Shown here: positions 985 to 20,480 of the stretch, in pieces | Position numbering within the stretch: position 1 is the first letter of the stretch | Layout: each line of letters starts with the position of its first letter | Origin: a virus | Lineage: Duplodnaviria; Caudoviricetes | DNA: 64,000 bases | Virus record (IMG/VR): IMGVR_UViG_3300032319_001025 | Span: 32,001 to 96,000 of that record | Strand: one strand, 5' to 3' | Position numbers and translations under genes: made by a program | The notes under the pieces: model-generated | Seen by the model: only the letters and a program-made list of their open reading frames with translations | The model's database searches: none | What the model was told of the DNA's origin: nothing

Positions 985-3582
985 ATGGACCCAAAAGATA
1001 AAAAAACACCAGTAGCTTCAGCCGTTGTTATTAGGCATAGTGAGTTTCCAGAACTTATATTGCACGGCAAAAGAAGAGACATTAATGAATGGAGTATTCC
1101 AGGTGGGCACGTACATAAACATGAATCTTTAAAAGACGCTGCAGTTAGAGAAACTAAAGAAGAAACTGGTTTGCAATTAGATCCAAACGATTTAGAACAT
1201 ATTGGCACAGAGCACTACAATACAAAAGAAGATAAACACTTAACGGTCCATCTGTTCGTATGTAAAAAACCTTACCATCATGAGAGCATGGATTTTACTG
1301 GTGATAAAGATGAAGAATTTAAAGAATTAAAATTTATTAATCCATTAGAGCACGATGACTTATATCAGCCAAATGGAGAAAATATTGTAACCACCTACCT
1401 TAAAGGCGAGCTTAAAAAACCTGAAATTAGTAAATCAGAAGAATTAGATAAAGGCGTAATGAAAAGGCTTTTTCCGTTTAATCCAAAAAAAGACGTTAAA
1501 ACTGAAGATAAATCAGATTTAAGGCTTTGGCAAACTTATGGTAATTATGGATATAGCGGAGAAACAATTGATGATATTGATGATGTAAAATATGTTAGAG
1601 AAGGTTTAAGCGAAATTAATCAAAATGCTAAAATGCGAGCACTTAATAAATTAACAGGGATTGCAAAAACCAAAATAAATCCTGAAACAAAAGAAAGAGA
1701 ATTCTTATTACACAGAGGAGTGAGTTCTTCAGAGTTTAAAGATTCTACCGATGGAAAGCATGCTTATCATCAAAATAAAACATCTTGGATGCCATTTTCT
1801 GATTTAGCTGAAAAATACAGGGATTCACATTATTCAACTAGTGGCAGGATAGATCGTAAAAAATCAAAAAAAGATAGTGGTAAAGTAATATCCGCTTGGA
1901 TTAGCGAAAAAAACATCCACCATATTCCTAAAATGTACGGAGCAATTCACACTCCTACATCCCATGGTTTTAATGAATATCAAGAAGAAAATGAAATAAT
2001 TGTAAATCCTCACAAATCAGCTTTAGCAACTTCAGAAGAAATAAGAGGAAAAAATGATATCTTGCGCAACAAATTAAAAGATAATTATTTAAAAAATATT
2101 TCAAAACAATTTCAAAAACCCCAAAAACTAGCAGCAACTGAAAAATCAGAACTTAAAAATTTAGAAATTTATCAATTTTTTCACAATATTTCCAATAACT
2201 TAATTAAAGTTGAGGTTAAAGATAAAAATAATTTGCAAGTAGCTGAAGCAAGCTTTAAAATAGAACTAGACAGCCTAATTGTGCCAGAAAGCTTACAGAT
2301 TGACCGTAAACATGATCAAGCAGGCTTGCAAAAAGAAATGTACATTTATGCTGACGAGGTTTTAACTTTAAATAAGCAGGAGTTAGAAAAGATGTCTCAG
2401 CCAGCTTTAAGATTTAAAAAACTAACAAAATTGCCAACAAGACCTGAGCAGGACGTTAAATTAATTAACCCTGAGCCACTTAAGGTGCCTTCACGTACAA
2501 AAGAAGAAAAAGATATAGAAGAACTTTCTGGCGGCCCTAGAACAATATCTAGACAATCCCTAGAAAATAAGAAAATAGCTAATAAAATTTTAATGATGCA
2601 CCCAGAGGCAAGTAAATCACCAAAAGAAAAAAGAGAATCGGAAAGAAAGGCTTTGGAAGCGCATATTGGTGGAGGCGAAGACGTTATTTCACCTGAAGGT
2701 ACATTTACAACATCTGGATATACCTCTGGTTTTGGAGATTTACCAGTAAGTCAGCCTTATGAAGTTAAAAAACCGTGGCCTACATCCGAAGGTAATGTAA
2801 CTCAAGAGCACGAAGCAACTCATCATTTATTAAACCATTTAAGATTCAAATATGGCGAAAATACAAAAAATAGAGTTGTCGATCATCTTTTAAACGTACA
2901 TTTGCATCCAAATGAAAGAGAAGCAATAGAAAAACTTATTAGATCTAAACCTTCATATAGAGATTTACCAGAAGGCGAATTTAATGAAGAGGTACTAACC
3001 CATCTTAGAGATTTATTAGTAAGTAAAAGAAAAAGAGAAGATCATAACTCATTAAAAATGCAACAGCCTAAATATTGGCAACCTATTGATTATAAAAGGC
3101 TTAAATCATCATGGAAACAGTTAACAGGTCATGCCAAAAGAATGACGGAAAAAGACCTAAATAAGCTTATGGGCAAAAATGAAGGCCAAATTGATTTTGA
3201 AAAGCTTTTTAAGGCTAAAAAACTTAAAACCAAGCAATTTAAGCGTTTTTATCTGGATAGAAAAAAAGATCATAGCGGCAACACTGGAAGTGGAATAGTT
3301 GCAGTAGGGGTACAGTTTCCTGGCGGTAAATGTATAGTCAATTGGATGACCGATACACCATCATTTAATTTTTATGATTCTTTGGATGATATTAAAGAAG
3401 TTCACGGGCATGATGGAGATACAGAGATTAACTTCATGGATGATTTTAACAAAACTGAAGAAATGAAAAAGTTTGAAGATATTCATGAGAAATTAGCTTC
3501 TCGGTCTAAATATCTTAGAAAAGATCCTTTGCATAAGTTGCCGTTTTTATTTTTAAATAAAAGATTCATGGGAAAAGATTAG
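985..3582 (+). CDS. Multi-domain polyprotein: Nudix hydrolase + ADP-ribosyltransferase-like + degenerate GNAT + HExxH zincin-like + small conserved phage domain
   Basis: Nudix box GGHVHKHESLKDAAVRETKEETGL; ART R-S-E triad LLHRG / TSW / EENEIIV; GNAT-like QIDRKHDQAGLQKEMYIYAD; EHEATHH; C-terminal RFYLDRKKDHSGNTGSGIVAVG...HGHDGDT module. Linkers ISKSEELDKG, KLAATEKSELK, ELEKMS, LMGKNE, LFKAK, FNKTE. Confidence 0.75.
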   Translation: MDPKDKKTPVASAVVIRHSEFPELILHGKRRDINEWSIPGGHVHKHESLKDAAVRETKEETGLQLDPNDLEHIGTEHYNTKEDKHLTVHLFVCKKPYHHESMDFTGDKDEEFKELKFINPLEHDDLYQPNGENIVTTYLKGELKKPEISKSEELDKGVMKRLFPFNPKKDVKTEDKSDLRLWQTYGNYGYSGETIDDIDDVKYVREGLSEINQNAKMRALNKLTGIAKTKINPETKEREFLLHRGVSSSEFKDSTDGKHAYHQNKTSWMPFSDLAEKYRDSHYSTSGRIDRKKSKKDSGKVISAWISEKNIHHIPKMYGAIHTPTSHGFNEYQEENEIIVNPHKSALATSEEIRGKNDILRNKLKDNYLKNISKQFQKPQKLAATEKSELKNLEIYQFFHNISNNLIKVEVKDKNNLQVAEASFKIELDSLIVPESLQIDRKHDQAGLQKEMYIYADEVLTLNKQELEKMSQPALRFKKLTKLPTRPEQDVKLINPEPLKVPSRTKEEKDIEELSGGPRTISRQSLENKKIANKILMMHPEASKSPKEKRESERKALEAHIGGGEDVISPEGTFTTSGYTSGFGDLPVSQPYEVKKPWPTSEGNVTQEHEATHHLLNHLRFKYGENTKNRVVDHLLNVHLHPNEREAIEKLIRSKPSYRDLPEGEFNEEVLTHLRDLLVSKRKREDHNSLKMQQPKYWQPIDYKRLKSSWKQLTGHAKRMTEKDLNKLMGKNEGQIDFEKLFKAKKLKTKQFKRFYLDRKKDHSGNTGSGIVAVGVQFPGGKCIVNWMTDTPSFNFYDSLDDIKEVHGHDGDTEINFMDDFNKTEEMKKFEDIHEKLASRSKYLRKDPLHKLPFLFLNKRFMGKD

Positions 3583-3590
3583 GTTTTTTT

Positions 3591-6500
3591 ATGCCAAAAA
3601 TTTTACATGGAATTTTTAGCAAGCTGGATAAATACTCCAATGACGTACAAACAAAAGCGGAAAAGTATATAAAATCTCCAGAGTTCAATGAAAAAACCTA
3701 TTTAAACCTTCTATCTGGAAAATATAACGATGATATTGCTAGAATTATAGAGGTTTTACCAAGCGTCAAAAAAAGTAAATACAACACAAAAAGCAATAAC
3801 GATAAAATAATTTCAAATGTTTTAAATTTTAAACAGAAGGATGATGCCGATTTTTTTTGGAAAGCTGGATATATTGAATATTTTTTACGGCACTTAAAAC
3901 ATTCTACAGAATCTGTAAATAAAATTATTAACTTCGTTAAGAATAAAAAAAAAATACCAACAGAGGAAAAAACCAATTTACTCCGATCCCTAAACAAAAG
4001 TTCTGAAATTAAAAAAACAAATATTAAAGATATAATAGATACCGTACCTAATGACCCAACTGGTGCATCTGTTATAAATTTATTTATAAATCACCCATCC
4101 GTAGATTCTAAAATTTTTAACGAAGTATTAAAAAAGTTTGATTTTAACAGTAATCGACTTCCAGGTGGAGTTTTAACTTCTAAATTCTTAACTTCTGAAG
4201 CTGCATTAAAAATTTTAAATGATACTGATACTATAGGTGATTCGAATGAATTAGATAAACTTTTGAGCAAATTACCTAAAAGTGCCAGAAACGATTATAT
4301 ACATTCAAAACTTGGGATTACTGGAGGTTCTAAATCTCCATCGCCAGAGGAATATGAAACTGATTGGTTTCATGGCCCAGAAAGAGATGAAATTACCGCC
4401 AGAACAATTTCTGAATCAAAATACTTAACTCCAGAAGCTATTAATCATATTAAAAAACACGGCGGTTTTGGTGAAAAATATGGATTATTTAGTAATGAAC
4501 ATGTAGATCCAAAACATGCAGCAGAAATGGCAGCAAAATGGGCCAATGATGAAGATGGTTACGAAGAATCTGATTTTAAAGAAAGACTTAAAGAAGATAA
4601 TCAAGATAACGTTTGGGATAATTATTCTGATGATGCAAGAGAAAAAGTTCAAGAAGAATACCCAATTTCTAAATACTTAAGAGATATCGGCGACGATGAA
4701 GTTTCCAGAACTCTTTTTGATAAAGATCATGATGAATGGAAAAAAGATTGGATCAAAGAAAACAAAGATTTGACAGGCCCAAATCCTGATTTTAATCCAG
4801 AAGAACCAGAAAGCGAAGATAATCCAAAAAATATTACATTTAATGAAGATGAATATGATATTAAATATCCAGTAGAAGATCATCCGAATTATAGTGATTA
4901 CGATTCGGAAGCAGAGGAAGCTTTTGAAAACGCAAAAAATCATGCGGATCTTGAACCGTTTTACGATGGTTATGATGAATCAATAAACGAAAACGTTAGC
5001 GATGCTGTTTCTGATTTATTTGATGACGAATTAGATAATTGGACTGAGCACGATCATTTTTTACCAGAACACGTTAGAGATAAATTAAAAGATCCGTTAA
5101 AAGGTAAAGAAAATCCTACAGAAAAAGATCTTGAAGAAGCTATTTATCATCCGTTAAAAATAGTTAGGGACCATGCCGCTAAACACGAAAAATTATCACC
5201 TAGACTTATCAATAAAGTTTTAGAAGAAGGTGACAAAAAAGCAAAAATGTCCGTATTAGAGAATCCTAATATCACATCGCAGCAGTTAATGAATGTAATC
5301 AAAAAAGATGATGATAAGGAAACCGTATCAAAAGCACTTCGGAATTTTAAAATAACCCCAGAGCATGTTCAAGAAGCTATCAATAGGCACAATGAAAATA
5401 GCGAAATAATGAATGCAGCTTTTAAATCCCATGCCGCAAATGATGAACACGTAAAAAACTATTTAAATATAGCTAAAAGTTCTAAAACACCTTACTATAA
5501 TGATCTAAGCCCAATTGTTAATTCTAAATTCAATTTGTCCCCAGAAGATGTTAACTTTATTTATAATAAATTTAATGAGCAGGGCAGGTATAATGATCTG
5601 TCTAAGCTGGTTTCGCATCATAATTCAACAAAAGATATTATCGAACAATCATTAAAACATCATGACTATAAAGTAAAAGAATCAGCAAAAAAAATGATGG
5701 ACAGGAAGTTCCCACAATCCGCAGATCCTGTAAATGTAAAAATGGGAACTCATCCTTTAAGGGTATTGAGAGATATAGTGTCTGAACAAGGTGGTACTAC
5801 CACAAAAGGCAAATTAAAAAATTTAGGCATAAATCCAGATAAATTTAATACACTGTTTAAGCCTAATGGCACAATTTCATCAGACGATATACAAAAAGTA
5901 ATTGATTCTGCTCCGAGTAAAAATTATAATACTTCTCATGATAAATGGACTGGAGCGCAAAGGCACTCAGCAGACCCATCTGATGTGTTTCAGCTTAATT
6001 ACACTCAAGAACATTTAAATGAAATGCAAAAAGAAGGTGTTCTAGACACTTTCCAAAAAATACATGAAGTTGCAATGAGATCTGGGCATCCAGTAAAAAA
6101 TAATACTATTGGATGGGTAAGATATACAGGAAGTCCAGAAGAAGGATTTCATATTGACGAAATTCAATCAGATTTAGGTAAGTCTATTATTAATCAAACT
6201 ATCCAACAGGCTAAAAACGCTGTACAAAACAACCAAATGACCACAGAACAAGCTGAAACAGCCGTAGAAAATGCTAAAAATAAATTTCCAGAAGACCATT
6301 TAAAGAAAATAAATAAGATACTCTTTGAAGATAAACATCCAAGTGAGATAATACACGAAGCTTTTAAAGAATATATGAGAGGTAAAGGTTTTGAAAAAAC
6401 CCCAATACATATATGGCAGCCAGAATCTAAAGCCCCAATATCAGGCATGCGTCAATCTACTAAAATATCCGCAAGTGATGCTAAAACTGCTTTAAACTCT

Positions 6501-7292
6501 GCTAAAAAAGATAGAATGGATGATGAAGCGAAAGCTTTAATTTCTTGGGGGCAAAAAAACAAATTAGCCCCAGCATCTTTTAAAGATATTACGCATGAGC
6601 ATTTAGATCAAATTGCTGAAAAATATTCAGATTTTGCAAATGCACACAGAGAGCAGCATAATTCTGATCCAGAATTACCAGTTCAGTTGCCCGTACACAT
6701 GATTGAAGGTTATGGTAAAATTCCTAAAGCTATGGGTTATAAAGAATCTTTTTATGGTAAGCTGCCTACTCAAAGTAATGAGGAATATAAAATTAAACCA
6801 GAAATAAATCAATCTGCAGCCCCGACATACGAAGATGTAATTAGAAAGAACGAAGGACAACCAACTATTTTACATCATTATAGTAGACACCAAGATCTAA
6901 AAGAACTAGACCCTAAAAAAGAGGGTATGGGTGTTAGAGGAGATCATACAAAAAGATTTTTACCATATCAAATAAAAAACTTTCCACATGTAACATTTTA
7001 TTACATAAATGATACTCCAGAGCAAATAGTTAAAGATGCAGCTAAGTCAAAATACACCGTAAAACTAGAGCCACATCAAAAACTATATAACTTGCATACA
7101 GATCCTGAAGGTTTAGGAAGGCAGGCGATTGCAGAAAACCAAGGTGCATGGAATTATGAAAAAATCTTTAATAAAATTAAAAATGCTGGATACCATGGTA
7201 TAACTGCAATAGGCTCTGAACATCCAATTATTGGAAATACCGTAATGCTATTTCATCCTCAAGCGATACATGAGGAGAAAAAATTAGTATGA
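3591..7292 (+). CDS. Large polyvalent protein: helical HEAT/LRV-like repeats, acidic tract, EIQSD domain, C-terminal ART-like module
   Basis: Repeats such as HAAKHEKLSPRLINKVL / SVLENPNITSQQLMNVI / KALRNFKITPEHVQEAI; GWVRY...FHIDEIQSD motif; after the VIRKNE linker a domain with LHHYS...FYY...KIKNAGYHGI that resembles polyvalent-protein ART modules. Confidence 0.55.
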   Translation: MPKILHGIFSKLDKYSNDVQTKAEKYIKSPEFNEKTYLNLLSGKYNDDIARIIEVLPSVKKSKYNTKSNNDKIISNVLNFKQKDDADFFWKAGYIEYFLRHLKHSTESVNKIINFVKNKKKIPTEEKTNLLRSLNKSSEIKKTNIKDIIDTVPNDPTGASVINLFINHPSVDSKIFNEVLKKFDFNSNRLPGGVLTSKFLTSEAALKILNDTDTIGDSNELDKLLSKLPKSARNDYIHSKLGITGGSKSPSPEEYETDWFHGPERDEITARTISESKYLTPEAINHIKKHGGFGEKYGLFSNEHVDPKHAAEMAAKWANDEDGYEESDFKERLKEDNQDNVWDNYSDDAREKVQEEYPISKYLRDIGDDEVSRTLFDKDHDEWKKDWIKENKDLTGPNPDFNPEEPESEDNPKNITFNEDEYDIKYPVEDHPNYSDYDSEAEEAFENAKNHADLEPFYDGYDESINENVSDAVSDLFDDELDNWTEHDHFLPEHVRDKLKDPLKGKENPTEKDLEEAIYHPLKIVRDHAAKHEKLSPRLINKVLEEGDKKAKMSVLENPNITSQQLMNVIKKDDDKETVSKALRNFKITPEHVQEAINRHNENSEIMNAAFKSHAANDEHVKNYLNIAKSSKTPYYNDLSPIVNSKFNLSPEDVNFIYNKFNEQGRYNDLSKLVSHHNSTKDIIEQSLKHHDYKVKESAKKMMDRKFPQSADPVNVKMGTHPLRVLRDIVSEQGGTTTKGKLKNLGINPDKFNTLFKPNGTISSDDIQKVIDSAPSKNYNTSHDKWTGAQRHSADPSDVFQLNYTQEHLNEMQKEGVLDTFQKIHEVAMRSGHPVKNNTIGWVRYTGSPEEGFHIDEIQSDLGKSIINQTIQQAKNAVQNNQMTTEQAETAVENAKNKFPEDHLKKINKILFEDKHPSEIIHEAFKEYMRGKGFEKTPIHIWQPESKAPISGMRQSTKISASDAKTALNSAKKDRMDDEAKALISWGQKNKLAPASFKDITHEHLDQIAEKYSDFANAHREQHNSDPELPVQLPVHMIEGYGKIPKAMGYKESFYGKLPTQSNEEYKIKPEINQSAAPTYEDVIRKNEGQPTILHHYSRHQDLKELDPKKEGMGVRGDHTKRFLPYQIKNFPHVTFYYINDTPEQIVKDAAKSKYTVKLEPHQKLYNLHTDPEGLGRQAIAENQGAWNYEKIFNKIKNAGYHGITAIGSEHPIIGNTVMLFHPQAIHEEKKLV

Positions 7293-8353
7293 AAAATTTG
7301 ATTAAACAGCCGCATTTGATTTTTTCAATGGAAAATCCTAGATATCAGGTAACCCAAAAAGATATAAATCATGGACAAGCTTTAAATATGCTTAAAGATT
7401 TAGGCGAGAATACTATTGATTCTAATGGAAAATATGGATCGGAAGAGCCATCAATTATAGTTTCTAACCCTAAAAACGTTAAAGATATAATCAAGCTTGC
7501 TAGAGATGCTGGACAAGAATCTATTATTTACTCAGATGGAAAAAGACATAAAATGATATATTTAAACGGTCCCCAAGCTGGACAAACGGTTAATGGGGAA
7601 GGTACGGTTTTCTACAATCAGAAACCAAATGATAACTACACACATTTTAAAGATCAAAACGGTAAAGATATTTATTTTACTCATAATTTTGATTTTGGTA
7701 AATCAGAGAAATTGCAAAAAACTTCTAAAATTAATTTGAATCCAGAACATGGGAAAATTATCGCAAATGCATACGAAAAAATGAAACATGATCCAAATGA
7801 TCCTAAAGTTAAAGAGGCGTATGGTGCGCTAATTAATGAAACAAAAAAACAATTTAAAGATATGTTAAATTCTGGGTTTAAATTTTCTAAAATTAAACCC
7901 GAACAGTCCAATCCATATGGCACATCAAAAGATGTACATGAAGATATAGAAAAAAATAAACATTTATGGTTTTTTCCAACAGAACAGGGATTTGGTCAAG
8001 AGGGACAAACTAAAAATCATCCAATGCTAGAATCAACTGAATTTCAATTTGAAGGTAAACCTTTATTAGCTAATGATCTGTTTAGAATAGTTCACGATTA
8101 TCGCGGTCATTATTTAGGAGGTAAAAGCTCGTTCGGACCTAAAGGAGAGCATCAAGCTTATCTTACACATAAAAAAGATTTTAGCCCTTTAGCTCAAAAA
8201 GCTTTGGCTACAGAAACTATGGGTCAAAATAATTGGGTAAATTTTGGACCATATGGAGAAAAAAACAGAAAAAACCCCGAAAACACTACATACGCAGAAC
8301 AAAAATCGGGGCTTCTTCCTGACGAAATAATAAATGGGAGATGGCACGAATGA
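7289..8353 (+). CDS. Two-module protein: N-terminal T3-type SAM lyase-like domain + C-terminal NDLFRxVHDxxGH domain
   Basis: LIFSMEN...NHGQALNML...GKYGSEEPSIIV...LARDAGQESIIY...MIYLNG...NYT matches the motif order of T3 SAMase (GCY..EE..V, Q-D-C-V-L). Linker FGKSEKLQKTS, then FRIVHDYRGH...GEHQAY...ETMGQN, a possible metal-binding domain. Confidence 0.6.
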   Translation: MKNLIKQPHLIFSMENPRYQVTQKDINHGQALNMLKDLGENTIDSNGKYGSEEPSIIVSNPKNVKDIIKLARDAGQESIIYSDGKRHKMIYLNGPQAGQTVNGEGTVFYNQKPNDNYTHFKDQNGKDIYFTHNFDFGKSEKLQKTSKINLNPEHGKIIANAYEKMKHDPNDPKVKEAYGALINETKKQFKDMLNSGFKFSKIKPEQSNPYGTSKDVHEDIEKNKHLWFFPTEQGFGQEGQTKNHPMLESTEFQFEGKPLLANDLFRIVHDYRGHYLGGKSSFGPKGEHQAYLTHKKDFSPLAQKALATETMGQNNWVNFGPYGEKNRKNPENTTYAEQKSGLLPDEIINGRWHE

Positions 8354-9783
8354 ATCATAAACATTACAGAAGGATACTGCTCGACTCTTTTGATGAAAAT
8401 TCTTTGCAAAAAGGTTCAAAAGGCGATTGGCAAAAAGAAGGGTACAAAATACATCATGTTGGAGATCCTAAAAGTAGTTTTGACGTTATTGCAGTTTCCC
8501 CAAAAGGAGAAACCATCGGTAAGGTAAATATTGGAAGATACGAAACAAAAACAAAACCAAATCTAGTGGCTTCTAACCCAATTGTACATAAAGATCACAG
8601 ACGTAAAGGTATCGCATCTGCTATGTATCAATATGCAGAAAAAGTATCTGGTGGAGTAATGAAACCAGATGTAGGATTAACTTTATCGGCAAAACAAATG
8701 TGGGCTAAACCAAATAGACCTTTTGGCGGTAAACGTAAATATTTTCAACATTTAATATCTAAATCAGAATTAAAGAAGGCACCATTTATTCATGAACACA
8801 ATGCTTTTGCAGCAAGTAATATAGGTCCTTATATCGGAGAAGATTCAGAATTAGAATCTGTTACCAATCATAAAGGTTACAAGGTTTATAAATATAAAGA
8901 CGGCGATTATCATTATTTTGCTATACATAAAGATAACGATCCCAAAAAAGAAGTACTTTCATCAGCTACCGTATCTTCTTATTACGATCCTGAAGATCCA
9001 AATTTTGACGAAAATGAAGGGTTGCCTTATATTGAACATGCAGCAACGTTATCAGAACACCAAGGTAAAGGCATGGGAACAGCCATTCATGAGGCTGCAA
9101 CAAAACATTTTGGAACATTATTAAGCAGTACCGCGCTTTCTCCAGGAAGCGACGCAACTTGGAAAAAGATGCGTGCAAATAAAAACATAAAATTAAAAAT
9201 TGGAAGAGGTGAATCAAGTCCCTATATAGCTAAATGGATTAAAAAGCCCAAAATTAACAAAACAGAAGATTTAAATCAACTAGCTAAAGGTTTTGAAGAA
9301 TTATTTGGTTTTTTGGCTAAAGCAAAAAAGAATATTATATATATAGCTACCGATGGAGATAATATCGGTGCTTCAGTTGAAAGGGCCGCTCTATCTAACG
9401 ATATTAAAGAAATTAAAAAACAAGATAAAATTATTAAAAGAGGTAATCAAACCGTAAGAAAGTGGATTAAAAAACGCAAAGGTTCAATTTATATTGACGG
9501 TGGCGATGATATTTCTTTTACTATTCATAAAAAATATTTAGATGAAATCGAAGAACTAAGGAATAAATATCATGAGGCTACTGGATATACAATCACAGTT
9601 GGAATAGGTGATAGTATATCAGAAGCCGCTCATGCCATGGTTTATGGTAAATTAAAAGGCAAAAACCAAGTAAATAGATGGACATCAGAAATAGAATCTA
9701 TTATTTCTCAGCATGATAAAAAACCTGAATCCGCAGAAGAAAAATATCAAAAAGAAGGTCTTTTGGTTCCCAAAAAGATATAA
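8341..9783 (+). CDS. Polyprotein: two GNAT acetyltransferase domains + C-terminal mCpol (minimal CRISPR polymerase / GGDEF-like nucleotide cyclase)
   Basis: GNAT motif A twice (VHKDHRRKGIASAMY; EHQGKGMGTAIH). mCpol pattern YIATDGDNIG...IDGGDD...TITVGIG...EA..A...GKLKGKN. The real start may be the ATG at 8350. Confidence 0.8.
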   Translation: MARMNHKHYRRILLDSFDENSLQKGSKGDWQKEGYKIHHVGDPKSSFDVIAVSPKGETIGKVNIGRYETKTKPNLVASNPIVHKDHRRKGIASAMYQYAEKVSGGVMKPDVGLTLSAKQMWAKPNRPFGGKRKYFQHLISKSELKKAPFIHEHNAFAASNIGPYIGEDSELESVTNHKGYKVYKYKDGDYHYFAIHKDNDPKKEVLSSATVSSYYDPEDPNFDENEGLPYIEHAATLSEHQGKGMGTAIHEAATKHFGTLLSSTALSPGSDATWKKMRANKNIKLKIGRGESSPYIAKWIKKPKINKTEDLNQLAKGFEELFGFLAKAKKNIIYIATDGDNIGASVERAALSNDIKEIKKQDKIIKRGNQTVRKWIKKRKGSIYIDGGDDISFTIHKKYLDEIEELRNKYHEATGYTITVGIGDSISEAAHAMVYGKLKGKNQVNRWTSEIESIISQHDKKPESAEEKYQKEGLLVPKKI

Positions 9784-9823
9784 CTAATTAAATATATTCA
9801 ATTATTTGCGTCTTTTTGTTATG

Positions 9824-9832
9824 ACTTAATCT
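9824..9832 (+). promoter_or_regulatory. Candidate late promoter motif ACTTAATCT
   Basis: Intergenic, 34 nt before the ATG at 9867. Confidence 0.65.
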
Positions 9833-9866
9833 TTTAAGTAGGCATTATTAAAAGAGTTTTAATAAA

Positions 9867-11018
9867 ATGGCAAAACTAACAAAAACAGATTATTTTGATG
9901 CTTTGTGGAATTTGTATCAAGAAAACAAAAAAAAGGCATCTATGCCACCACACGTTGGCGGCGAAGAACAGAAATATGTTGTTCATGTTGGTGGTCAAGC
10001 AATAACCGAACCCAAAACATACAAGCAAATTATTCAAGACCATGGCGACATTAAAAGATTAGAAGCATCTGGAGCAAGAGTTCTCCCCCATGTGCCAAAA
10101 ACAACACCAAAACCGCCACCATTGCCTAAACAAACAAAGACAATGGGCAAAAACCAAGATATTAAAATACCTAAAAAAGAATTTATTAAAGAGCACAAGC
10201 GCTTAATTGATGTTCTCGAGTCTCCTTCCCATAAAGATGACGTACAGGAAGCTAAAAAACAAAGAAAAGAATTAAAAGAAATCAACAAATCAGATAAATA
10301 CTTTCAAAATTTAAAAAAGGGCTACGCACAAAAAAAACTTCCAGTAGATCCAAATAAAGAATCTCAAATGAATGCCATGTTAATAGATAAATGGCAAAAT
10401 GAACAATATACGCCAACTAGAGCATTAATTAAACCATTAACTGGAAATTTAAGGCAAAGAGCGTTAAATAGACTAGCTGGTACAACAAAAGTCAGAAAAG
10501 CAAAAGACGGCAAAAGAGAGTTTTTATTGTATCGAGGTGTTAGCGATTCTGAAAAAGATAGCGCATTAGATAACAACGTTTTAAATTATCCAGAAAACCA
10601 ATACACTTCATGGACACCACATCAGGGAATAGCTGGTAGATTTGCAAATAGCAGAATGGGTCATATTATTGGCGCATGGATTCATGAAAATGATATACAA
10701 CATTACCCTAAAATGGTTGGAAATGTATATGAAAGGCATAAAGGAAAGCCTATTAAATCCGCAAATGATTATGCTGGAGAAGATGAAATTATAGTTAGAC
10801 ATACTAGACCGCATGAAGGGCACGTAACGCATTCATTTTCTACGGATTCAAATTTTATAAAATATAACACTAAAAGTCCGATTAAAAACGAAATTAAACC
10901 AGAAAGATTGGTTGCATCAGAAGAAAAAAAGAACAACGAAGACTTCTTAAAAGAAGAAATATTGGATTTTTCCGATGAAGAAACCCTAGAGCACTCTACT
11001 AACAAGTGGAGTAAATAA
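9867..11018 (+). CDS. Polyprotein with ADP-ribosyltransferase-like domain
   Basis: REFLLYRGVS / YTSWTP / GAWIHE / GEDEIIV, clearly paralogous to the ART domain of 985..3582. Linkers INKSDKYFQNLKKG and RLVASE. Confidence 0.7.
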   Translation: MAKLTKTDYFDALWNLYQENKKKASMPPHVGGEEQKYVVHVGGQAITEPKTYKQIIQDHGDIKRLEASGARVLPHVPKTTPKPPPLPKQTKTMGKNQDIKIPKKEFIKEHKRLIDVLESPSHKDDVQEAKKQRKELKEINKSDKYFQNLKKGYAQKKLPVDPNKESQMNAMLIDKWQNEQYTPTRALIKPLTGNLRQRALNRLAGTTKVRKAKDGKREFLLYRGVSDSEKDSALDNNVLNYPENQYTSWTPHQGIAGRFANSRMGHIIGAWIHENDIQHYPKMVGNVYERHKGKPIKSANDYAGEDEIIVRHTRPHEGHVTHSFSTDSNFIKYNTKSPIKNEIKPERLVASEEKKNNEDFLKEEILDFSDEETLEHSTNKWSK

Positions 11019-13774
11019 TGCCTGTTTTAACTCCAGAACAACACGAAAAGGAAATGCACTTAGCAGCTAGTTCTGGCGACTGGGATAAAGCTATAAAACA
11101 CGCAAAATCCCAACCTAAAAATTGGTCGGCTTTTGATAAATTACCCCAATATGAAATCCCCCCAGAAGCTTTTGAAAAAGTAATTAATTCGGTTCCAAAA
11201 AATGATAGGGCTAATTTTTATTTTGAGCTTGCAAGCAACCTTCATCCAAATTTAACTCATGATCAATTAGATTTTTTAGGCAGCAAAACTGGAAATGACA
11301 TTTACGCACAAGATTCAATAAAAAACCACCCTAATTGGAATCCTAAAGAATCAAAGAAAAATTTAGGTGAAAAGTCAGCATCTGATTTTTGGTTAAGCTA
11401 CGAAAGAAGAGTAGAGCCGCATCATTTTGCTACAATTAAGTCTATATTTTCTGGCAAACCAGAAGAAATAACAGATCATAGAGGTAAAACTGGAAACAGC
11501 CATTTAGGAAGTATTCAGAATGGAAGGCTATACGAAAAAGAAAGTAATATAGCCGCAAACGGACCTAAATTTTATGGCGATCAATTTTTATCAAACCTTA
11601 AAGACGTACATCCATATTTATTAGATCATGCAAAAAAAGTTCAAGACGCTATAATGCAGGATGAAAATATAGAAAAAAGAATTATAAACGGAAAACCTCA
11701 CATTAAACTTTATAGAGGTGTTGGAGGGTCTTACGCTAAAAGAATAGCAAAATCTTCAAAATATGATCCAAAAAATCATTCAGTTGAAAACAAAAAGTTT
11801 AAAATAAAATCAGCCCCCTTTAGTTCATGGTCTACTGAAAAAGAAGTAGCGGATAATTTTGCTAAATCCAGAACTAACATTACTGGAACTATAGGTCCAG
11901 CAAAACCAGGAGAATCTATAACACTATCTTCGTGGATTCCAGTAGAAAACATTTTACATTCGGGCTTTCATAGAATTCATACAGGTCAAGAACATGCACA
12001 TCCACATGAATCAGAAATAATAGTATCTCATCCAACAGGATACATGAATTTAAATTCAAAAGATTTACACCTCGTTAATACACTTAAAGACCCCTATTCA
12101 AGCGAAATTGAAAAAGTTTCAACAAGAGGCATTATCCCACAAAAACTGGCTGCATCAGAAAAAGAATATTTTAATGATTTGTTAGAAAAAAACCTCAGAT
12201 CTAAAATTGCTGCAGCAGCTCTAGGAGCATCTTTATTATCTACGCCAGCAAACATAAAAGAAATAAAACGACCATTAAATCAAATTCAAGAAAAACAAAC
12301 TCAATTACATCCAGATTTAGTTGATATTTCAGCAATTGAGAGTAATTACGGAAAAAACAAACAACATAAAAAAGTTTTAACTGGCGTTAACATGGGACAT
12401 AAAGCCGCTGGAGCTACTGGCTTAATGCCATTAACCATTAAAGAAACTATTAAAAGAAATAAAAACTTATCCGATAGATACCCACAAACCATTTCAATGG
12501 ATCACGATCAGTTAACTGATTTTATTAATAAAAACCCAAACATTGAAAACAAAATAGCTAATGCACATTATAAAAAACTTTTAAAGGTTTTTAGTAATAA
12601 CAAAAATAAAGCGATTTTTGCCTGGAGGAACGGCATTTCCGCAGCCAAAAACGCTTCACAAGAAGAAATAAATAACAATCCCTATGTAATAGCAGTAAAT
12701 AAAGCAAAAATAAACATAAATAAATCAGATAAATACTTTAAAAGTCTTAAAAAAACAAATACTAAGATTAATCAACCAAATAAAATAAATAAAAAATTTA
12801 TAGCTGTTATTAATAAAGGCACGTTATCAGATGGAAAATATAATCCTTCCCCTTTATATTATGTGGGCGATGGCAATCACATGACAGAACCATATAAAGC
12901 TATGGCTTTTGATTCAATAGAGCAAGGTAGAAAAGAAATTGAAAATTCTTGGAAAAAAAGATCTCAAAATGAAGAATATAAAAGAACGGCACCACATCCT
13001 TTTGACATTAGCTTTATAGAAGATCCAAGGCCAGGAAAATGGAACGAAGATGAAAGTTATTATGAAGATGAAAGCGGTAATCCAATTTTAGACAGTAAAG
13101 GCAATGTCATACACGCAAAAATGCCAAAACTAGAATTTAACGAACCTAATTCTATTATGGTGCATGTGGAAGACCCTTCAGATCAAAAAGAGCTAAAGCA
13201 AAAACAAAAATTAGCTTCAAGCTTAAAAAGCCAGGGCAAAAAAGTAGATTTAGTATATCCCAAAATGCCAGAACAAAAGGTAAAAATACAATCATACAAA
13301 GAAGCAATGAAAGAAATAGCAGAGCAGGAAGCAAAACAAAAATTAAAAGATTACGGATATGATGATGAAGGAGTAAAACAAGCTATTCAAACATCAGGAG
13401 AAAAAACAAACGTTATTCCAGAAAAATTAGCAGCATCTGAGCTTTATTTTAAAAATCTTAAAAAATCAAATGAAAACAAACAATTATTAAATAAATGGAA
13501 AAAATATTTTAAATCAAAAATCAAAAAAACTGACGGCATTACAACTACTACAATGCCAAGAGGACAAAGCCCTGGTCAAACAGGCCCATCATTAAATGGA
13601 ACATCAATTAAAGAACAGCCCAGAGGCCCGATTGGAACAATTAGGCCGTCAAAGGATTTACAGCAGATTTCACAGTCTTTTACGGGCAATTTGGGACAAC
13701 CTGGTATATCAGCAGCTGCATCAAATCTTAGAAGATTTTTGGGTAAATCTAAAGGTTTAAATAAAAAACAATAA
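11018..13774 (+). CDS. Polyprotein: ADP-ribosyltransferase-like + lytic transglycosylase (SLT/lysozyme-like) + unknown module
   Basis: KLYRGVG / FSSWST / HESEIIV triad. SLT motifs ISAIESNYG...AAGATGLMP...AW.NG. Linkers KLAASEKEYFNDLLEKN, INKSDKYFKSLKKT, KLAASELYFKNLKKS. Confidence 0.7.
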   Translation: MPVLTPEQHEKEMHLAASSGDWDKAIKHAKSQPKNWSAFDKLPQYEIPPEAFEKVINSVPKNDRANFYFELASNLHPNLTHDQLDFLGSKTGNDIYAQDSIKNHPNWNPKESKKNLGEKSASDFWLSYERRVEPHHFATIKSIFSGKPEEITDHRGKTGNSHLGSIQNGRLYEKESNIAANGPKFYGDQFLSNLKDVHPYLLDHAKKVQDAIMQDENIEKRIINGKPHIKLYRGVGGSYAKRIAKSSKYDPKNHSVENKKFKIKSAPFSSWSTEKEVADNFAKSRTNITGTIGPAKPGESITLSSWIPVENILHSGFHRIHTGQEHAHPHESEIIVSHPTGYMNLNSKDLHLVNTLKDPYSSEIEKVSTRGIIPQKLAASEKEYFNDLLEKNLRSKIAAAALGASLLSTPANIKEIKRPLNQIQEKQTQLHPDLVDISAIESNYGKNKQHKKVLTGVNMGHKAAGATGLMPLTIKETIKRNKNLSDRYPQTISMDHDQLTDFINKNPNIENKIANAHYKKLLKVFSNNKNKAIFAWRNGISAAKNASQEEINNNPYVIAVNKAKININKSDKYFKSLKKTNTKINQPNKINKKFIAVINKGTLSDGKYNPSPLYYVGDGNHMTEPYKAMAFDSIEQGRKEIENSWKKRSQNEEYKRTAPHPFDISFIEDPRPGKWNEDESYYEDESGNPILDSKGNVIHAKMPKLEFNEPNSIMVHVEDPSDQKELKQKQKLASSLKSQGKKVDLVYPKMPEQKVKIQSYKEAMKEIAEQEAKQKLKDYGYDDEGVKQAIQTSGEKTNVIPEKLAASELYFKNLKKSNENKQLLNKWKKYFKSKIKKTDGITTTTMPRGQSPGQTGPSLNGTSIKEQPRGPIGTIRPSKDLQQISQSFTGNLGQPGISAAASNLRRFLGKSKGLNKKQ

Positions 13775-13836
13775 TAAAATATATAACTAGTTGAATTAAT
13801 TAAATAAAATTAATCAAAAAAGCATTATTTTATATT

Positions 13837-13845
13837 ACTTAATCT
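13837..13845 (+). promoter_or_regulatory. Candidate late promoter motif ACTTAATCT
   Basis: Intergenic, before the ATG at 13863. Confidence 0.65.
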
Positions 13846-13862
13846 ATCAAATAGAGGTAATT

Positions 13863-15845
13863 ATGTCTAAGTCCTTATTAGAACAGGCTCAGGAATTATT
13901 AAAAAGCATTGAAAACAATCCAGAAGCATTAAAAGCTTTTCAAGAGCTTGTAAAAGCACGCGCAGAAGAATCAAAGCACATTGAAATGGAAATGTCACCA
14001 GACCAAGAAAAGAAAAAACGCATTGATGAATTGTCCAAAAAAATTAAAGCTTGCATGGAAAAAATGCAAAAAGAATCAATGGATAAAGACGACAAGCCAC
14101 ATTTACCAGGAACTCCAGAAGATAAAGCTCATGATGTTGTCGAAGAAGGCGAAAGTGTTAAAGAAGCCATTCACGGATTAAAAGATAAAAGTGAAGATTC
14201 TAAAAAAGAAATGCTTTCACATTTAAGATCTTTAAAAGATAAATCCCAGCTTAGAAGCCCAGAAAACAGGGAAGCTGGTAAAGAACCTCATGAAAAAGCT
14301 GAAACTGGACACGAAAAAGGTGTTCATCAAGCAGATTACAGCACAACTTATATAAAAGATAATAAAATTCAGCACGGTATTTCAACTGCTGGAATTAGAG
14401 CAAGAGAAGCCTCTAAACCCCGTTCTTTTAAAGAATATGAAGAATCACCTAAAGCAGCAAAGGCGGGTCACGAAAGAGTATTAGAAGAAATTAAACAACA
14501 GCCTAAACCCAACCTTCCTAAAACTGAAAAAGCTGAAACAGAAAAATCTGTACACGGAGTTCCAGGAAAAAATAGGCCGTTACATTCACGTGGCATACAC
14601 GAAACTGTAAGTCAAAGCAGCTCAGAGTTTGGCGGCGAAGCAAAAGAAAAAAGCCTTGCTGGATTAAAAGTAAGACGTGGAGATACTGCAGGAGCAAAGA
14701 AGGCACATAAAGAAATTGTTTCCGAGCAGAAAAAAATGCCTGTTGCAAAATTACCAAAAGCTGAAACAGAAAAAAATGAAACTTATTACAGAAATTTAGT
14801 TAAAAATACTTTAGAAAAACAACTAATGTCTCCACCGTTCGGAATGAGCGAAATGGAAAAAGAAGAAGACCCAAGAGAAATGGTTGAATCAAGTTTAATG
14901 GCAATTCACAGAAAAGCTAATTATTTGCAAAAATTGCTTCATGAAGTTTGCGAATGTAAAGAAGTGCCAGCTTGGGTTCAAGATAAGCTTTCTTCTGCTA
15001 AAACGCATATGACCGATGTAATGGATTTTATTGCATCTCAAGCAGGAAAAGGTAGTCATCATGAAGAGCAAGAAATGCACCCAGCCGAAACTGCAGAAAT
15101 TGTAGTAACTAAATCTGAATTAGAAAAAGCCAAAATTGACGAAGGTAAACAACTAGGAAGCAAAATAGCAGCAAGACAAGAAAGAAATATTAGGGACGTA
15201 ATTACAACTAAAACCCCTTCTGGACAAAAAACAAGGACAGCAAGATCTTCTGCAAGAAGAGAAAAAGAACTAGAAGAAGGTAAAAAGCCAGAATCTCTCT
15301 TATCTGCTTTAAAAGAGCATGCGGAAAGAAGGAAAGGCGAAAAAATTGTAGGAAAACCTAAAACACTAGAAAATATTAGCGGTAGAGACATTAGAGGCAA
15401 GTCTGCTGAACAAAGAGCTGGCGTACACATGCATTCTGGTTCAATGGCAGGTAAAGAAATGCCAATTGGAGTTTCTGCACCAGTTTTTGCAGATAAAAAA
15501 GGTAAAGCTTATCCTATTGGTGGATTATTCGGTGAAAATAAATATTCTTCTAAAGTTAGACATGAAGAAGTAATGGAAGGCTTAAAAAACATTAAGCCAA
15601 GTTTACCTAAGTCCGAAATGAAAAAAGAACAGCTCGAGCCAGCTCCGAAACCACAAAGCAAACCTAAAATGATTGCACCGCCTGCTAGTGGTGCTGGTGC
15701 AAGCGATGGGGGTCATGGCAACTGGAAAGGCGACGGAAAAGGCCCGAAAATGAAAAAACCAGTAAAATTTAACTATAAAATTGCAAAAGCTGAAAAAGTA
15801 CAATATTATTCAAATTTAGTTAAATCTTTATTAGATAAAAAGTAA
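13863..15845 (+). CDS. Charged, repeat-containing putative head-internal / scaffold-like protein
   Basis: K/E-rich; three internal repeats GxH...H.E(V/I)..E.K..P..LPK(T/A/S)E; a module with VPAWVQDKLS; termini paralogous to 23768..24490. Confidence 0.5.
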   Translation: MSKSLLEQAQELLKSIENNPEALKAFQELVKARAEESKHIEMEMSPDQEKKKRIDELSKKIKACMEKMQKESMDKDDKPHLPGTPEDKAHDVVEEGESVKEAIHGLKDKSEDSKKEMLSHLRSLKDKSQLRSPENREAGKEPHEKAETGHEKGVHQADYSTTYIKDNKIQHGISTAGIRAREASKPRSFKEYEESPKAAKAGHERVLEEIKQQPKPNLPKTEKAETEKSVHGVPGKNRPLHSRGIHETVSQSSSEFGGEAKEKSLAGLKVRRGDTAGAKKAHKEIVSEQKKMPVAKLPKAETEKNETYYRNLVKNTLEKQLMSPPFGMSEMEKEEDPREMVESSLMAIHRKANYLQKLLHEVCECKEVPAWVQDKLSSAKTHMTDVMDFIASQAGKGSHHEEQEMHPAETAEIVVTKSELEKAKIDEGKQLGSKIAARQERNIRDVITTKTPSGQKTRTARSSARREKELEEGKKPESLLSALKEHAERRKGEKIVGKPKTLENISGRDIRGKSAEQRAGVHMHSGSMAGKEMPIGVSAPVFADKKGKAYPIGGLFGENKYSSKVRHEEVMEGLKNIKPSLPKSEMKKEQLEPAPKPQSKPKMIAPPASGAGASDGGHGNWKGDGKGPKMKKPVKFNYKIAKAEKVQYYSNLVKSLLDKK

Positions 15846-19052: not shown

Positions 19053-20480
19053 ATGAAAAAAAGTAAAAAATCAATTTTAATTTCTCAAAAAAAAACTTGG
19101 CCAGCTGAAAAAACTCTTCAAAAGATCCAAGAAAAATACCCTGAAATTATCTCAATAGATAAATCTACTTACATTAATACAAAATTTAAAGCTCTTTTTA
19201 CAGATAAAGATTTTGGCGATTTTTGGGCAACCCCTAACAGACTTTTAAAAGGTGGTAAACATCCGAGCAGGTCTTATAAAAATATGCAAATTTCTTTAGA
19301 AGAAATTAAAAAAAGACTTCCACCAGAAGTGACAATAATTGAAAATACATATTTAGGCACTAAAAAAGTAGCTACTTTTATAGATAAAGATTATGGAGAG
19401 TTTACAAAAATAGTTGAATATGTTTTAGTATCTAGATATCCTCACCCCAAAAGATTATCAGACAAAAAAAAGAAGCACAAACTAATTCATCCAGATGAAA
19501 TTCAATCCAGATTGGATTCCATGGGAGCAGGTATAAAAATCAAAAAAGAAACCTATACTAAAATGCATTCACGTGCCATTTTTATTGACCCTAAGTTTGG
19601 TGAATGGGAAGCATTACCTTACAATGTTATTTTCAATCAAACTCGTCACCCAAAACATAAAAATAATCCTTTAATAGAGCAAAAGATATGCGATTTTTTA
19701 AAATTAAAAAATATAAATTTTAAGAGGAACCAAAAAATAATAAAAAAAGATGGTTATCCATTAGAAATAGATGTTTACCTGCCAGACTACAATATTGGAA
19801 TAGAAACAAACGGTCTGTATTGGCATTGTGAATTAAAAAAAGGTAAATATTTTCATAAAGAAAAACATGAACTAGCAGAATCTCAAGGTATCAAGCTAAT
19901 ATCTTTTTTTGAAGATGAAATTAATTTTAAATTTGATTTAATCTGTTCAATTTTATCTAGTAAGCTCAATATAATTGAAAACAAAATTAATGCTAGAAAT
20001 TGTGAAATTGTTAAAGTTAACTTTAAGGAAGCTAAAGTTTTTTGCAACGAAAATCATTTAATGGGGTTTAGAAGTTCTTTTTTAAATATCGGCCTTAAAA
20101 AAGACGGTAAACTAGTACAATTAATCACTTTTGGAAAAAACAAAAAATATGGCGTTGAATTAGTAAGATTTTGCACTGTAAAAAATTCATCTGTTGTGGG
20201 TGGGTTTTCTAAATTAATAAAATATGCCCAAATTAAACTTAAAGAGCTAGGATACAATTCAATTATGTCTTATGCAGATAAAAGAATAAGCAATGGTCAG
20301 GTTTATATAAAAAATGACTTTAAATTGGACGGTATTACTCCGCCAGATATGTTTTGGACAGATAAAGAGGTTAGGCTATCAAGAAGGGCATCCTGGGGCA
20401 AAAAAGACGATCAAATGAGGCTGGAGGGTTACCATAAGATATTTGGCCCTGGTCATTATAGATTTATTAAATATATTTAG
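19053..20480 (+). CDS. Hef-like free-standing homing endonuclease (repeated DNA-binding units + Vsr/DUF559-like nuclease + Mom/GNAT-like C-terminus)
   Basis: Three N-terminal repeats TY.....A.F.D...G.(F/W)...P...HP; LEIDVYLPDYNIGIETNGLYWH; ELVRFC...VVGGFSKL...SYADKRIS. Confidence 0.75.
   Translation: MKKSKKSILISQKKTWPAEKTLQKIQEKYPEIISIDKSTYINTKFKALFTDKDFGDFWATPNRLLKGGKHPSRSYKNMQISLEEIKKRLPPEVTIIENTYLGTKKVATFIDKDYGEFTKIVEYVLVSRYPHPKRLSDKKKKHKLIHPDEIQSRLDSMGAGIKIKKETYTKMHSRAIFIDPKFGEWEALPYNVIFNQTRHPKHKNNPLIEQKICDFLKLKNINFKRNQKIIKKDGYPLEIDVYLPDYNIGIETNGLYWHCELKKGKYFHKEKHELAESQGIKLISFFEDEINFKFDLICSILSSKLNIIENKINARNCEIVKVNFKEAKVFCNENHLMGFRSSFLNIGLKKDGKLVQLITFGKNKKYGVELVRFCTVKNSSVVGGFSKLIKYAQIKLKELGYNSIMSYADKRISNGQVYIKNDFKLDGITPPDMFWTDKEVRLSRRASWGKKDDQMRLEGYHKIFGPGHYRFIKYI

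Follow-up and report, generated by a model that had tools for sequence, protein, structure and literature searches.

Described mCpol systems and related phage proteins

The minimal CRISPR polymerase (mCpol), a domain of the Cas10-palm/GGDEF type, was reportedly defined by Burroughs et al. in 2015. Here, an mCpol domain encoded by a virus of the class Caudoviricetes (Duplodnaviria) was analyzed in a stretch of 64,000 nucleotides (hereafter, the window), which corresponds to bases 32001-96000 of an IMG/VR virus record of 144,013 bp (IMGVR_UViG_3300032319_001025). The source genome carries direct terminal repeats and was estimated to be 100% complete, in agreement with an initial annotation, made from the sequence alone, that had considered the domain phage-encoded. 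A search of sequencing runs listed no RNA run containing the stretch and a single DNA run that contains it, which may be its source and carries no information on expression or habitat. The domain forms the last part of a 480-amino acid (aa) protein in which unrelated enzymatic domains (GNAT, GNAT and mCpol) are joined in one phage polypeptide and, as judged from its sequence, it is an intact, phage-encoded mCpol within a modular late protein.

The closest described system is Panoptes, reported in 2025, in which bacteria guard nucleotide-signaling immunity with a constitutive decoy. The Panoptes nucleotide inhibits the toxin (PMC12657218, PMC12657230), so that supplying it would disarm the guard. 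The surveys of these systems, termed relatively rare, recorded approximately 295 mCpol loci, with phage- or virion-linked forms unmentioned, and the Panoptes paper anticipates an undiscovered phage 'anti-anti-anti-defence'. A viral answer consisting of the virus's own synthase was unreported in the literature searched, as text searches retrieved no paper on a phage-encoded mCpol or on an anti-Panoptes synthase; the present locus and its numerous relatives represent concrete candidates. The phage module resembled the Panoptes synthase OptS (KpOptS and VnOptS, as well as the type II system, PMC13577387) in its assignment to PF18182, its minimal single-palm fold and its equivalent metal-binding aspartates, and self-association with a shared active site was predicted for it, a result that may reflect likeness to the solved OptS oligomers only. 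Since no sensor domain is present, synthesis would probably be constitutive, as in OptS. Unlike Panoptes loci, which are found on bacterial or archaeal chromosomes and frequently beside CBASS, the mCpol gene lies within a late virion-region block of a complete 144-kb phage genome, where neither an S-2TMbeta, CARF-TM or SAVED effector nor a CBASS neighborhood was found. Unlike OptS, the module sits in a multi-enzyme protein, with additional N- and C-terminal helices and a PEEK...GLL tail, and it retains the canonical GGDD motif, which hardly survives in Kp and Vn OptS (PMC12657218).

The polyvalent proteins of phages and conjugative elements are the second point of comparison. The presence of GGDEF and RelA/SpoT domains in such proteins was reported by Iyer et al. 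(2017, PMC5512222), who proposed an interference with host nucleotide responses; nucleotide synthases in phage polyvalent proteins are therefore a known kind, and the suggestion of the initial annotation that an anti-defense strategy of this type was undescribed proved too strong, cyclic-nucleotide interference having been proposed in that work. The domains named there were GGDEF and RelA/SpoT, not mCpol, and Cpol appeared only as a host CRISPR enzyme. The locus shares with polyvalent proteins the presence of unrelated enzymes in one polypeptide, a set of partners that includes GNAT, NUDIX, ART-PolyVal, InPase and portal fusions and, by analogy, a predicted logic in which a nucleotide-generating enzyme would be delivered at invasion. 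The linkage to the virion is given by a gene block ending at the tail sheath and by one of 38 relatives carrying Portal_Mu, with the head module at a distance. Compared with the proteins of that study, those analyzed here are smaller and distributed among seven neighboring genes, with a recurrent K-[ST]-E at the junctions that suggests processing, and the lineage also has an mCpol or mCpol-like domain on a conserved neck-module protein.

The likeness to palm 2 of Cas10, from type III CRISPR-Cas, comprised the GGDD motif, the palm fold and a weak profile match below threshold (Cas10-Cmr2_palm2, E 2.4e-4, 21.7 bits vs. a cut-off of 27). Unlike Cas10, the module stands alone with approximately 115 residues, and has no HD, second palm, zinc-finger or D4 domain and no CRISPR ribonucleoprotein (crRNP) partners. 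GGDEF cyclases, including those of Bacillus phages G and SP-15, are similar in fold class, in being borne by phages and in working as dimers (a prediction in the case of the phage module), whereas the latter is shorter, lacks the I-site and carries GGDD-I rather than GG[DE]EF. The internal proteins and Alt of phage T4 are packaged enzymes that are processed by the head protease, with cleavage after Glu, and injected; they are similar to the route proposed below only, with no sequence relationship, and the neighbors of the block in the window are genes for neck and sheath rather than for head proteins. The text of the Pfam entry reportedly links mCpol to polyvalent proteins as well.

Identity, fold and catalytic residues of the mCpol module

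The Pfam scan of the protein recovered three parts, namely a GNAT domain, a second, divergent GNAT-like region and a full-length mCpol. Residues are numbered from the ATG at 8341, while the numbering of the whole-protein model and of the identical database protein P0002 runs 3 lower. The gene and the main features of the module are as follows:

8341..9783, + strand: gene for the GNAT-GNAT-mCpol protein, from the open reading frame list and its translation (480 codons from the ATG at 8341)
9340..9675, + strand: mCpol (minimal CRISPR polymerase, Cas10-palm/GGDEF-type), residues 334-445 (Pfam PF18182, E 2.7e-19)
9352..9360, + strand: DGD, residues 338-340, first metal-binding aspartate motif, with D338 aligned with Asp6 of KpOptS
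9424..9426, + strand: Asp362, aligned with Ser30 of KpOptS in an ungapped HMMER alignment, within the predicted dimer interface
9499..9510, + strand: GGDD, residues 387-390, beta-hairpin catalytic motif, which replaces the OptS loop carrying Asp57

The match to PF18182 ran end to end (model positions 1-112 of 114; 70.1 bits vs. a cut-off of 26.4), and it was the sole profile-detectable mCpol in the scan of the whole 144-kb genome (E 1.9e-21, 73.6 bits). The identification of the domain as mCpol, already advanced in the initial annotation, is on these profile matches virtually certain. The series of motifs noticed there after FLAKAK (DGDxIG...GGDD...TxGIG...GKN) was complete in the translation, which contains ...FGFLAKAKKNIIYIATDGDNIG...IYIDGGDDISF...TITVGIGDS...YGKLKGKNQV..., and the span then delimited, 9331-9700, corresponds to residues 331-453. 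FLAKAK occupies residues 324-329, DGDNIG 338-343 (9352-9369), GGDD 387-390 (9499-9510), GIG 421-423 and GKLKGKN 436-442. In the model, a long helix (residues 307-330, FLAKAK included) leads into the first strand of mCpol.

The AlphaFold2 model of residues 321-480, built from 116 relatives, had a mean pLDDT (per-residue model confidence) of 94.2. When it was compared with the PDB using Foldseek, the top six places were filled by OptS/mCpol structures (9pd0, 9mnr and 9nwn), with template modeling (TM) scores on the target of 0.80-0.84 and root mean square deviations of 2.2-3.1 Å, followed by GGDEF cyclases (TM approximately 0.55-0.6) and Cas10. The best match was OptS, and not the non-cyclase fold that the initial annotation had named as contrary evidence. 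Sequence searches of the PDB also recovered 9nwn and 9mnr, together with a weak match to 9arw (E 0.047), and the HMMER alignment to OptS was ungapped across the first half.

The motifs DGD, GGDD, GxG and GKxxGK were all present, and nearly invariant across the 38 closest relatives. Among the 116 relatives, DGD was kept in 87, while GGDD was found in 37 and GGDE in 54; in the closest clade, G384 and G385 (P0002 numbering) were invariant and D386 and D387 were conserved in at least 90% of the sequences. In OptS, activity needs D6 and D57 (PMC12657218). From the conservation of these residues, the phage module is likely to be enzymatically active and, because it looks catalytically intact, it is probable that the phage produces a nucleotide of the immune type, and it may also deliver the responsible enzyme by injection.

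A homodimer of the module was predicted with a score of 0.65, compared with 0.02 for the best control, although oligomers of OptS have already been solved and the result may therefore reflect likeness only. The mark used for this score was reached by 20 of 30 proteins solved as homomeric pairs and by 1 of 23 solved as single chains. Three runs shared at least 65% of contacts, with pLDDT values of the partner of at least 80, and the predicted interface residues adjoin GGDD and Asp362. The latter position is relevant to base selectivity: Ser30 of KpOptS sets the choice between adenine and guanine, and the S30N change inverts the ratio of c-di-AMP to cGAMP (PMC12657218). Of the 36 closest relatives, 27 had Ser in this column and 6 had Asp. 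If GGDEF enzymes are a guide, Asp362 may weakly point to a preference for guanine. In a confidently predicted module of approximately 170 residues, this natural Ser/Asp variation represents a built-in specificity contrast.

Phage-type relatives and shuffling of the module

The 160-residue module was searched exhaustively with HMMER against a library of 1.8 billion proteins, clustered at 50% identity. A total of 859 representative clusters passed E <=1e-3, of which 28 also passed E <=1e-30; the best 40 or so of the 859 carried mCpol within proteins of 300-2900 aa. All 103 closest relatives scanned had a phage-type architecture. A maximum-likelihood tree split the relatives into two groups (SH-aLRT 88). 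In group 1, on the side of the window, 38 of 42 rows were internal modules of larger proteins, up to 2933 aa in length. The Pfam partners tallied over 38 members of this group were NUDIX (11), DUF5661 (8), SAM-lyase (7), GNAT (6) and DUF3293 (4), with InPase, ART-PolyVal, PI3/4-kinase and Portal_Mu (E 8.7e-43) occurring once each. In group 2, 66 of 74 rows had the domain at the extreme N-terminus of a protein of 300-730 aa in which Pfam recognized nothing else. The nearest relatives of the module are, from these architectures and the tree, other phage-type proteins, not Panoptes synthases, and the alignments place it in a large clade with conserved catalytic residues whose members have been shuffled among conflict-type enzyme domains.

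Neighborhoods were compared over nine IMG/VR loci. In one of them (L004, 9584-10516), a 310-aa protein has a weak SAM-lyase-like match and, after it, a module 83% identical to that of the window, the locus being otherwise collinear with this phage around the mCpol gene. The gene that precedes that of mCpol in the window (7289-8353) begins with the SAM-lyase-like domain, and two GNAT modules lie between this domain and mCpol. The replacement of the GNATs by the SAM-lyase-like domain in an otherwise collinear locus indicates that modules have been exchanged at the linker. The 841-aa mCpol protein of another locus (L005) is flanked on one side by a baseplate-J protein and on the other by a weak match to a tail-tube-initiator-like protein, whose E value of 7.7e-5 fell short of the Pfam cut-off. 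As for the less familiar partners, DUF5661 (PF18905) also occurred in one relative of the degenerate neck protein described below and DUF3293 co-occurred with a SAM-lyase-like region; neither is of known function (example relatives P0175, P0008, P0030 and P0037).

That the module tampers with immune signaling is a realistic possibility, advanced here with some reserve. A different proposal is that the enzyme makes a housekeeping-type messenger, similar to c-di-GMP or c-di-AMP, which rewires motility, the display of surface polysaccharides or receptors, or the osmotic state of the host. The GGDEF diguanylate cyclases that came next to OptS in the fold comparison would suit such a role, as would the Asp at the position where OptS has Ser for adenine, which by analogy would favor guanine; moreover, annotated diguanylate cyclases exist in phages, including Bacillus phages G and SP-15, and c-di-GMP signaling affects infection by N4 (Doherty et al.). 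We nonetheless regard this role as doubtful, given that the module is mCpol and not GGDEF by both profile and fold, that its fusion partners (NUDIX, SAM-lyase, ART and InPase) are conflict-type domains, and that most relatives have Ser, not Asp, at the selectivity position.

Architecture of the protein and candidate processing sites

The likelier start of the gene is the ATG at 8350, resulting in a protein of 477 aa, because it overlaps the TGA of the upstream 354-aa gene (ATGA at 8350-8353) and is preceded by GGGAG at a distance of 9 nt. A database protein of identical sequence, P0002, also has 477 aa, and the 354-aa gene and the mCpol gene are, from the ATGA overlap, probably translationally coupled. 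The remaining features of the protein are listed below:

8458..8646, + strand: GNAT module 1, Pfam core at residues 40-102 of a module spanning approximately 25-140 (Acetyltransf_1 E 2.9e-8, Acetyltransf_7 E 7.5e-8)
8761..8769, + strand: K-S-E, residues 141-143, candidate head-protease cut site in the first linker, adjoining the disordered stretch 143-160
8833..9120, + strand: divergent GNAT-like module 2, approximately residues 165-260 (second Acetyltransf_1 stretch; weak Acetyltransf_CG match at 224-256)
9259..9267, + strand: K-T-E, residues 307-309, candidate cut site in the second linker, placed after the disordered stretch 264-303 and opening the helix that leads into mCpol
9676..9780, + strand: C-terminal helical extension with the clade motif (T)PEEK-x4-GLL, here SAEEKYQKEGLL, residues 464-475

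In the model of the whole protein, two disordered stretches (approximately 143-160 and 264-303) divide the chain into three globular parts. The first GNAT module has the acetyl-CoA motif HRRKGIAS at residues 86-93 and was modeled with pLDDT values of 86-94, while the second, with HQGKGMGT at 240-247, showed a beta-rich fold and lower values (approximately 60-77). After GKN, two helices (pLDDT approximately 77-90) are followed by the tail SAEEKYQKEGLL. This (T)PEEK-x4-GLL tail (window 9733-9765; relatives P0021-P0035) was kept across very different fusions, often followed by GK[ST]E, and may mark the border of the module, act as a docking peptide or belong to the enzyme itself.

Apart from K-S-E at 141 and K-T-E at 307, one in each disordered linker, the protein had no K[STN][ED] site, and motifs of the same type flanked mCpol modules in many unrelated fusions. 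Three K-S-E motifs were also found in a scaffold-like acidic protein of 315 aa encoded before the major capsid protein (MCP; genome 139614-140561), and two near the C-terminal third of the head maturation protease (PHROG 1028, genome 137774-138676). The occurrence of K-S-E in these two proteins would fit a putative site for the maturation protease. A composite linker motif, defined post hoc, was found 7 times in the 4.9 thousand aa (kaa) of the gene block, compared with once in 38 kaa elsewhere (48-fold). In the same head region, the N-terminus of MCP repeats LVKTLE twice, and the tail of the protease mimics the AGxxNAAPS stretch that follows.

Genome neighborhood and search for partner effectors

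The mCpol gene is the fourth of seven genes in a compact block (gaps of -13 to 88 nt, 4.9 kaa in total) that ends before the tail sheath gene:

985..15845, + strand: block of seven co-directional, closely packed or overlapping late genes, encoding multi-module proteins of 865, 1233, 354, 480, 383, 918 and 660 aa
16150..18960, + strand: tail sheath (PHROG 279, E 1.8e-23), placing the block within the virion gene region

Pfam and PHROG matches within the block included a NUDIX domain heading the 865-aa protein and a weak SAM-lyase-like start of the 354-aa protein. The sheath aligned along its entire length, at 37.5% identity, with the protein annotated as tail sheath in Myxococcus phage Mx1, the sole cultured relative found; no match was obtained among 50,697 GenBank phages using tblastn with the mCpol protein or megablast with positions 7000-12000.

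The initial annotation had reported that neither cas genes nor a CARF/transmembrane (TM) effector lay nearby, and this held as far as tested: the Pfam and PHROG scans showed no cas-like neighbors, and no membrane protein was predicted within approximately 12 kb of the mCpol gene. No match to SAVED or to a Cap15/S-2TMbeta receptor was found in the 144-kb genome; these negatives are weak, because control genomes also gave no match and the CARF families were not scanned individually. In PADLOC, only the mCpol part of the CARF_HEPN_mCpol model was matched, and none of the 103 closest relatives scanned had a CARF, SAVED, HEPN or 2TM Pfam domain. With the SAVED, Cap15-type and TM searches empty and a PADLOC match restricted to mCpol, the locus encodes an mCpol synthase without a recognizable cognate effector. 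Since the phage encodes neither sensor nor effector, the product would act on the nucleotide-signaling immunity of the host.

Phage-borne defense or superinfection exclusion, in which mCpol signals to an unrecognized effector of phage or host, would be in line with the fact that every characterized mCpol system is a defense system, and the sole PADLOC match was indeed to a defense model. Iyer et al. also weighed an action 'against rival elements' (PMC5512222). Yet there is no adjacent effector or TM gene, the gene is located within a late virion-region block rather than in a moron or a defense island, and the relatives were equally devoid of effector domains (0 of 103), all of which makes this explanation most improbable.

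A degenerate mCpol-like domain in the neck region

A second, degenerate copy was detected outside the window, in a 426-aa neck-region protein encoded at genome 29855-31135, approximately 0.9-2.1 kb upstream of the window start. Its first 120 residues or so were mCpol-like in profile-profile comparison (hhalign probability of 97.4% with the protein alone and 99.2%, E 3e-19, with its family of 18), with the catalytic motifs gone (DGD replaced by NAT, GGDD by SLYE, GKxxGK lost). All of its 17 database relatives were degenerate as well. Further on, the protein has a middle part rich in Gln and acidic residues, a helix with the conserved sequence NPEAFKQ and, at the C-terminus, a basic domain.

Proteins in the equivalent position differed among phages. 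In locus L007 (9992-11344), a 450-aa protein of group 2 has an intact N-terminal mCpol (Pfam E 1.5e-14), and its gene is flanked by PHROG 1004 upstream and by 16819 and 1000 downstream, a position equivalent to that of the 426-aa gene. In Mx1, a 468-aa protein annotated as 'hypothetical protein' (OR576727.2, CDS 33963-35369, WNM70340.1) gave a sub-threshold mCpol match (24.4 bits, E 4e-6) with degenerate motifs (SID and LGAV); its gene lies five genes upstream of the sheath, as does its equivalent in uncultured relatives. The stretch from capsid to sheath is comparable in Mx1, which encodes a 1479-aa protein annotated as 'NUDIX hydrolase' and a 'kinase'. The profile matches and gene order indicate that the lineage has an ancestral mCpol-headed neck-module protein. 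To judge from its motifs, this mCpol is active in numerous uncultured phages of the lineage, whereas Mx1, L004 and the present phage have a dead version.

The sole active-type mCpol of the present phage, and likewise of L004, was the module in the multi-enzyme block. Five other viral contigs, all of them fragments, had exactly one detectable mCpol each, which is suggestive; all 6 records counted, of which 5 were fragments, had one active copy per phage, a pattern that did not extend to Mx1. What appears new at this locus, as read from the motifs, is the co-occurrence of a dead copy in the neck protein and an active-type cargo copy, together with an Asp at the base-selectivity position.

Because dead copies are kept in the neck-module protein of this phage, L004 and Mx1 (hhalign 97-99%), the mCpol fold clearly has a non-catalytic use in the lineage. 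The module of the window might likewise serve mainly as a structural or oligomerizing palm fold of a virion protein, with catalysis incidental or absent, a role that the predicted homodimer would also suit. In the clade of the window, however, the catalytic residues were nearly invariant, which would be unexpected without selection on catalysis, whereas the dead copies showed a pattern of relaxed selection; a structural role for the window module is therefore very unlikely. The dead copies in Mx1 and in this phage provide a natural contrast for the role of the fold in the particle.

Proposed delivery and action

Our preferred reading is that of a packaged, linker-cut and dimerizing module, co-delivered with the DNA, that makes a cyclic nucleotide acting on host signaling; taken as a whole, it is proposed tentatively and falls just short of what we would call probable. 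The GNAT-GNAT-mCpol protein, a late product of an Mx1-like myophage, would be synthesized at the same time as the virion proteins and packaged. The head maturation protease would probably cleave it at the K-[ST]-E linkers, and it would enter the next host together with the DNA. The freed mCpol module, of approximately 170 residues, would then pair with itself, and each protomer would bind nucleoside triphosphate via the metals held by DGD and GGDD, allowing the constitutive synthesis of a cyclic di- or oligonucleotide. Two routes can be envisaged from this point. The product might re-supply the inhibitory 'all is well' nucleotide monitored by Panoptes-type guards, or it might occupy or mis-trigger receptors of the CARF/SAVED/CBASS type.

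As to the first part of this proposal, we lean slightly towards the mCpol protein being virion cargo. The enzyme could, instead, be active but unpackaged, working late in the cytoplasm of the producing cell, where it might silence guard-type effectors while nucleotide pools are drained by other phage proteins, time lysis or block superinfection; the modular protein would then be a plain late protein without structural function. All of the evidence for activity applies equally to such an enzyme, late co-expression with virion genes would put it in the cytoplasm whether packaged or not, and the true head genes are approximately 34 kb off on the linear map. An exclusively cytoplasmic enzyme is rather unlikely, considering that the relatives include a fusion to a Mu portal and the domain set of polyvalent proteins, that the mCpol protein of L005 is encoded between the weak tail-tube-initiator-like match and the baseplate-J protein, that the linker motifs are common to the scaffold-like protein and the protease, and that an enzyme made only late would come too late against early-firing defenses.

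Several observations weigh against virion delivery and an immune-type product. The head genes, including those for the large terminase subunit (TerL), the portal, the maturation protease, the acidic scaffold-like protein and MCP, were placed by PHROG at genome 131-142 kb, so that the context of the mCpol block is the neck/tail region and not the head. Plain K-S-E was not significantly enriched (60 of 500 shuffles reached the observed count), and the composite linker motif was defined after viewing the same proteins. The copies of the enzyme per virion would be few, and the amount of product may or may not be enough. The identity of the phage module to OptS was only approximately 20%, with no specific affinity to Panoptes synthases, and the SAVED and Cap15 negatives, on which the lack of a partner effector partly depends, are weak for the reasons given above. 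Finally, the mCpol-like domain of Mx1 is degenerate, and its activity is therefore dispensable in this phage group.

With regard to the first of the two routes, the initial annotation had suggested that an injected mCpol could top up the Panoptes decoy signal. The idea remains plausible but received no specific support, considering the low identity to OptS and the phage-type nearest relatives, and a specific suppression of Panoptes is improbable. Neither Tad2-like nor AcrIII-1-like (STIV B116) families were found in the phage genome, Acb1, Acb2, Tad1 and Apyc1 not having been searched; since no sponge or ring nuclease turned up, the argument that the phage needs to silence Panoptes has no footing. 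If this version were true, re-supply of the Panoptes-inhibitory signal would be the 'anti-anti-anti-defence' anticipated in the Panoptes paper, and a phage could then attack CBASS with sponges or nucleases while the guard stays untriggered. More generally, if the module were both active and packaged, these proteins would be the first virion-delivered synthases of immune signals, and would extend the polyvalent concept from destroying molecules to forging signals. For the Mx1-like lineage, we consider it unlikely that mCpol is used as a virion-associated enzyme, either at the N-terminus of the neck protein or as protease-released cargo, that is injected and forges an immune nucleotide. The literature search for virion proteomics of Mx1 returned only unrelated papers on the interferon 'Mx1'.

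Other genes of the region

Two genes upstream of the window, encoding proteins of 688 and 426 aa, were considered as portal and scaffold and rejected, as the PHROG matches put the head genes at 131-142 kb; the 688-aa protein had no family match. Sequence searches of the PDB with three neighbor proteins gave nothing useful, and a 284-aa neighbor matched only unnamed viral clusters in the protein atlas. In the 865-aa protein (985-3582), the NUDIX head matched the PADLOC candidate defense model PDC-S07 (E 6.9e-8), the NUDIX-bearing part also matched a PHROG family annotated as 'portal protein', and the C-terminus matched PHROG 7499, of unknown function. Directly after the sheath, a gene for a 475-aa HNH/homing-endonuclease-like protein was found (19053-20480, PHROG 3339, E 5e-72), in the same place as in L004.

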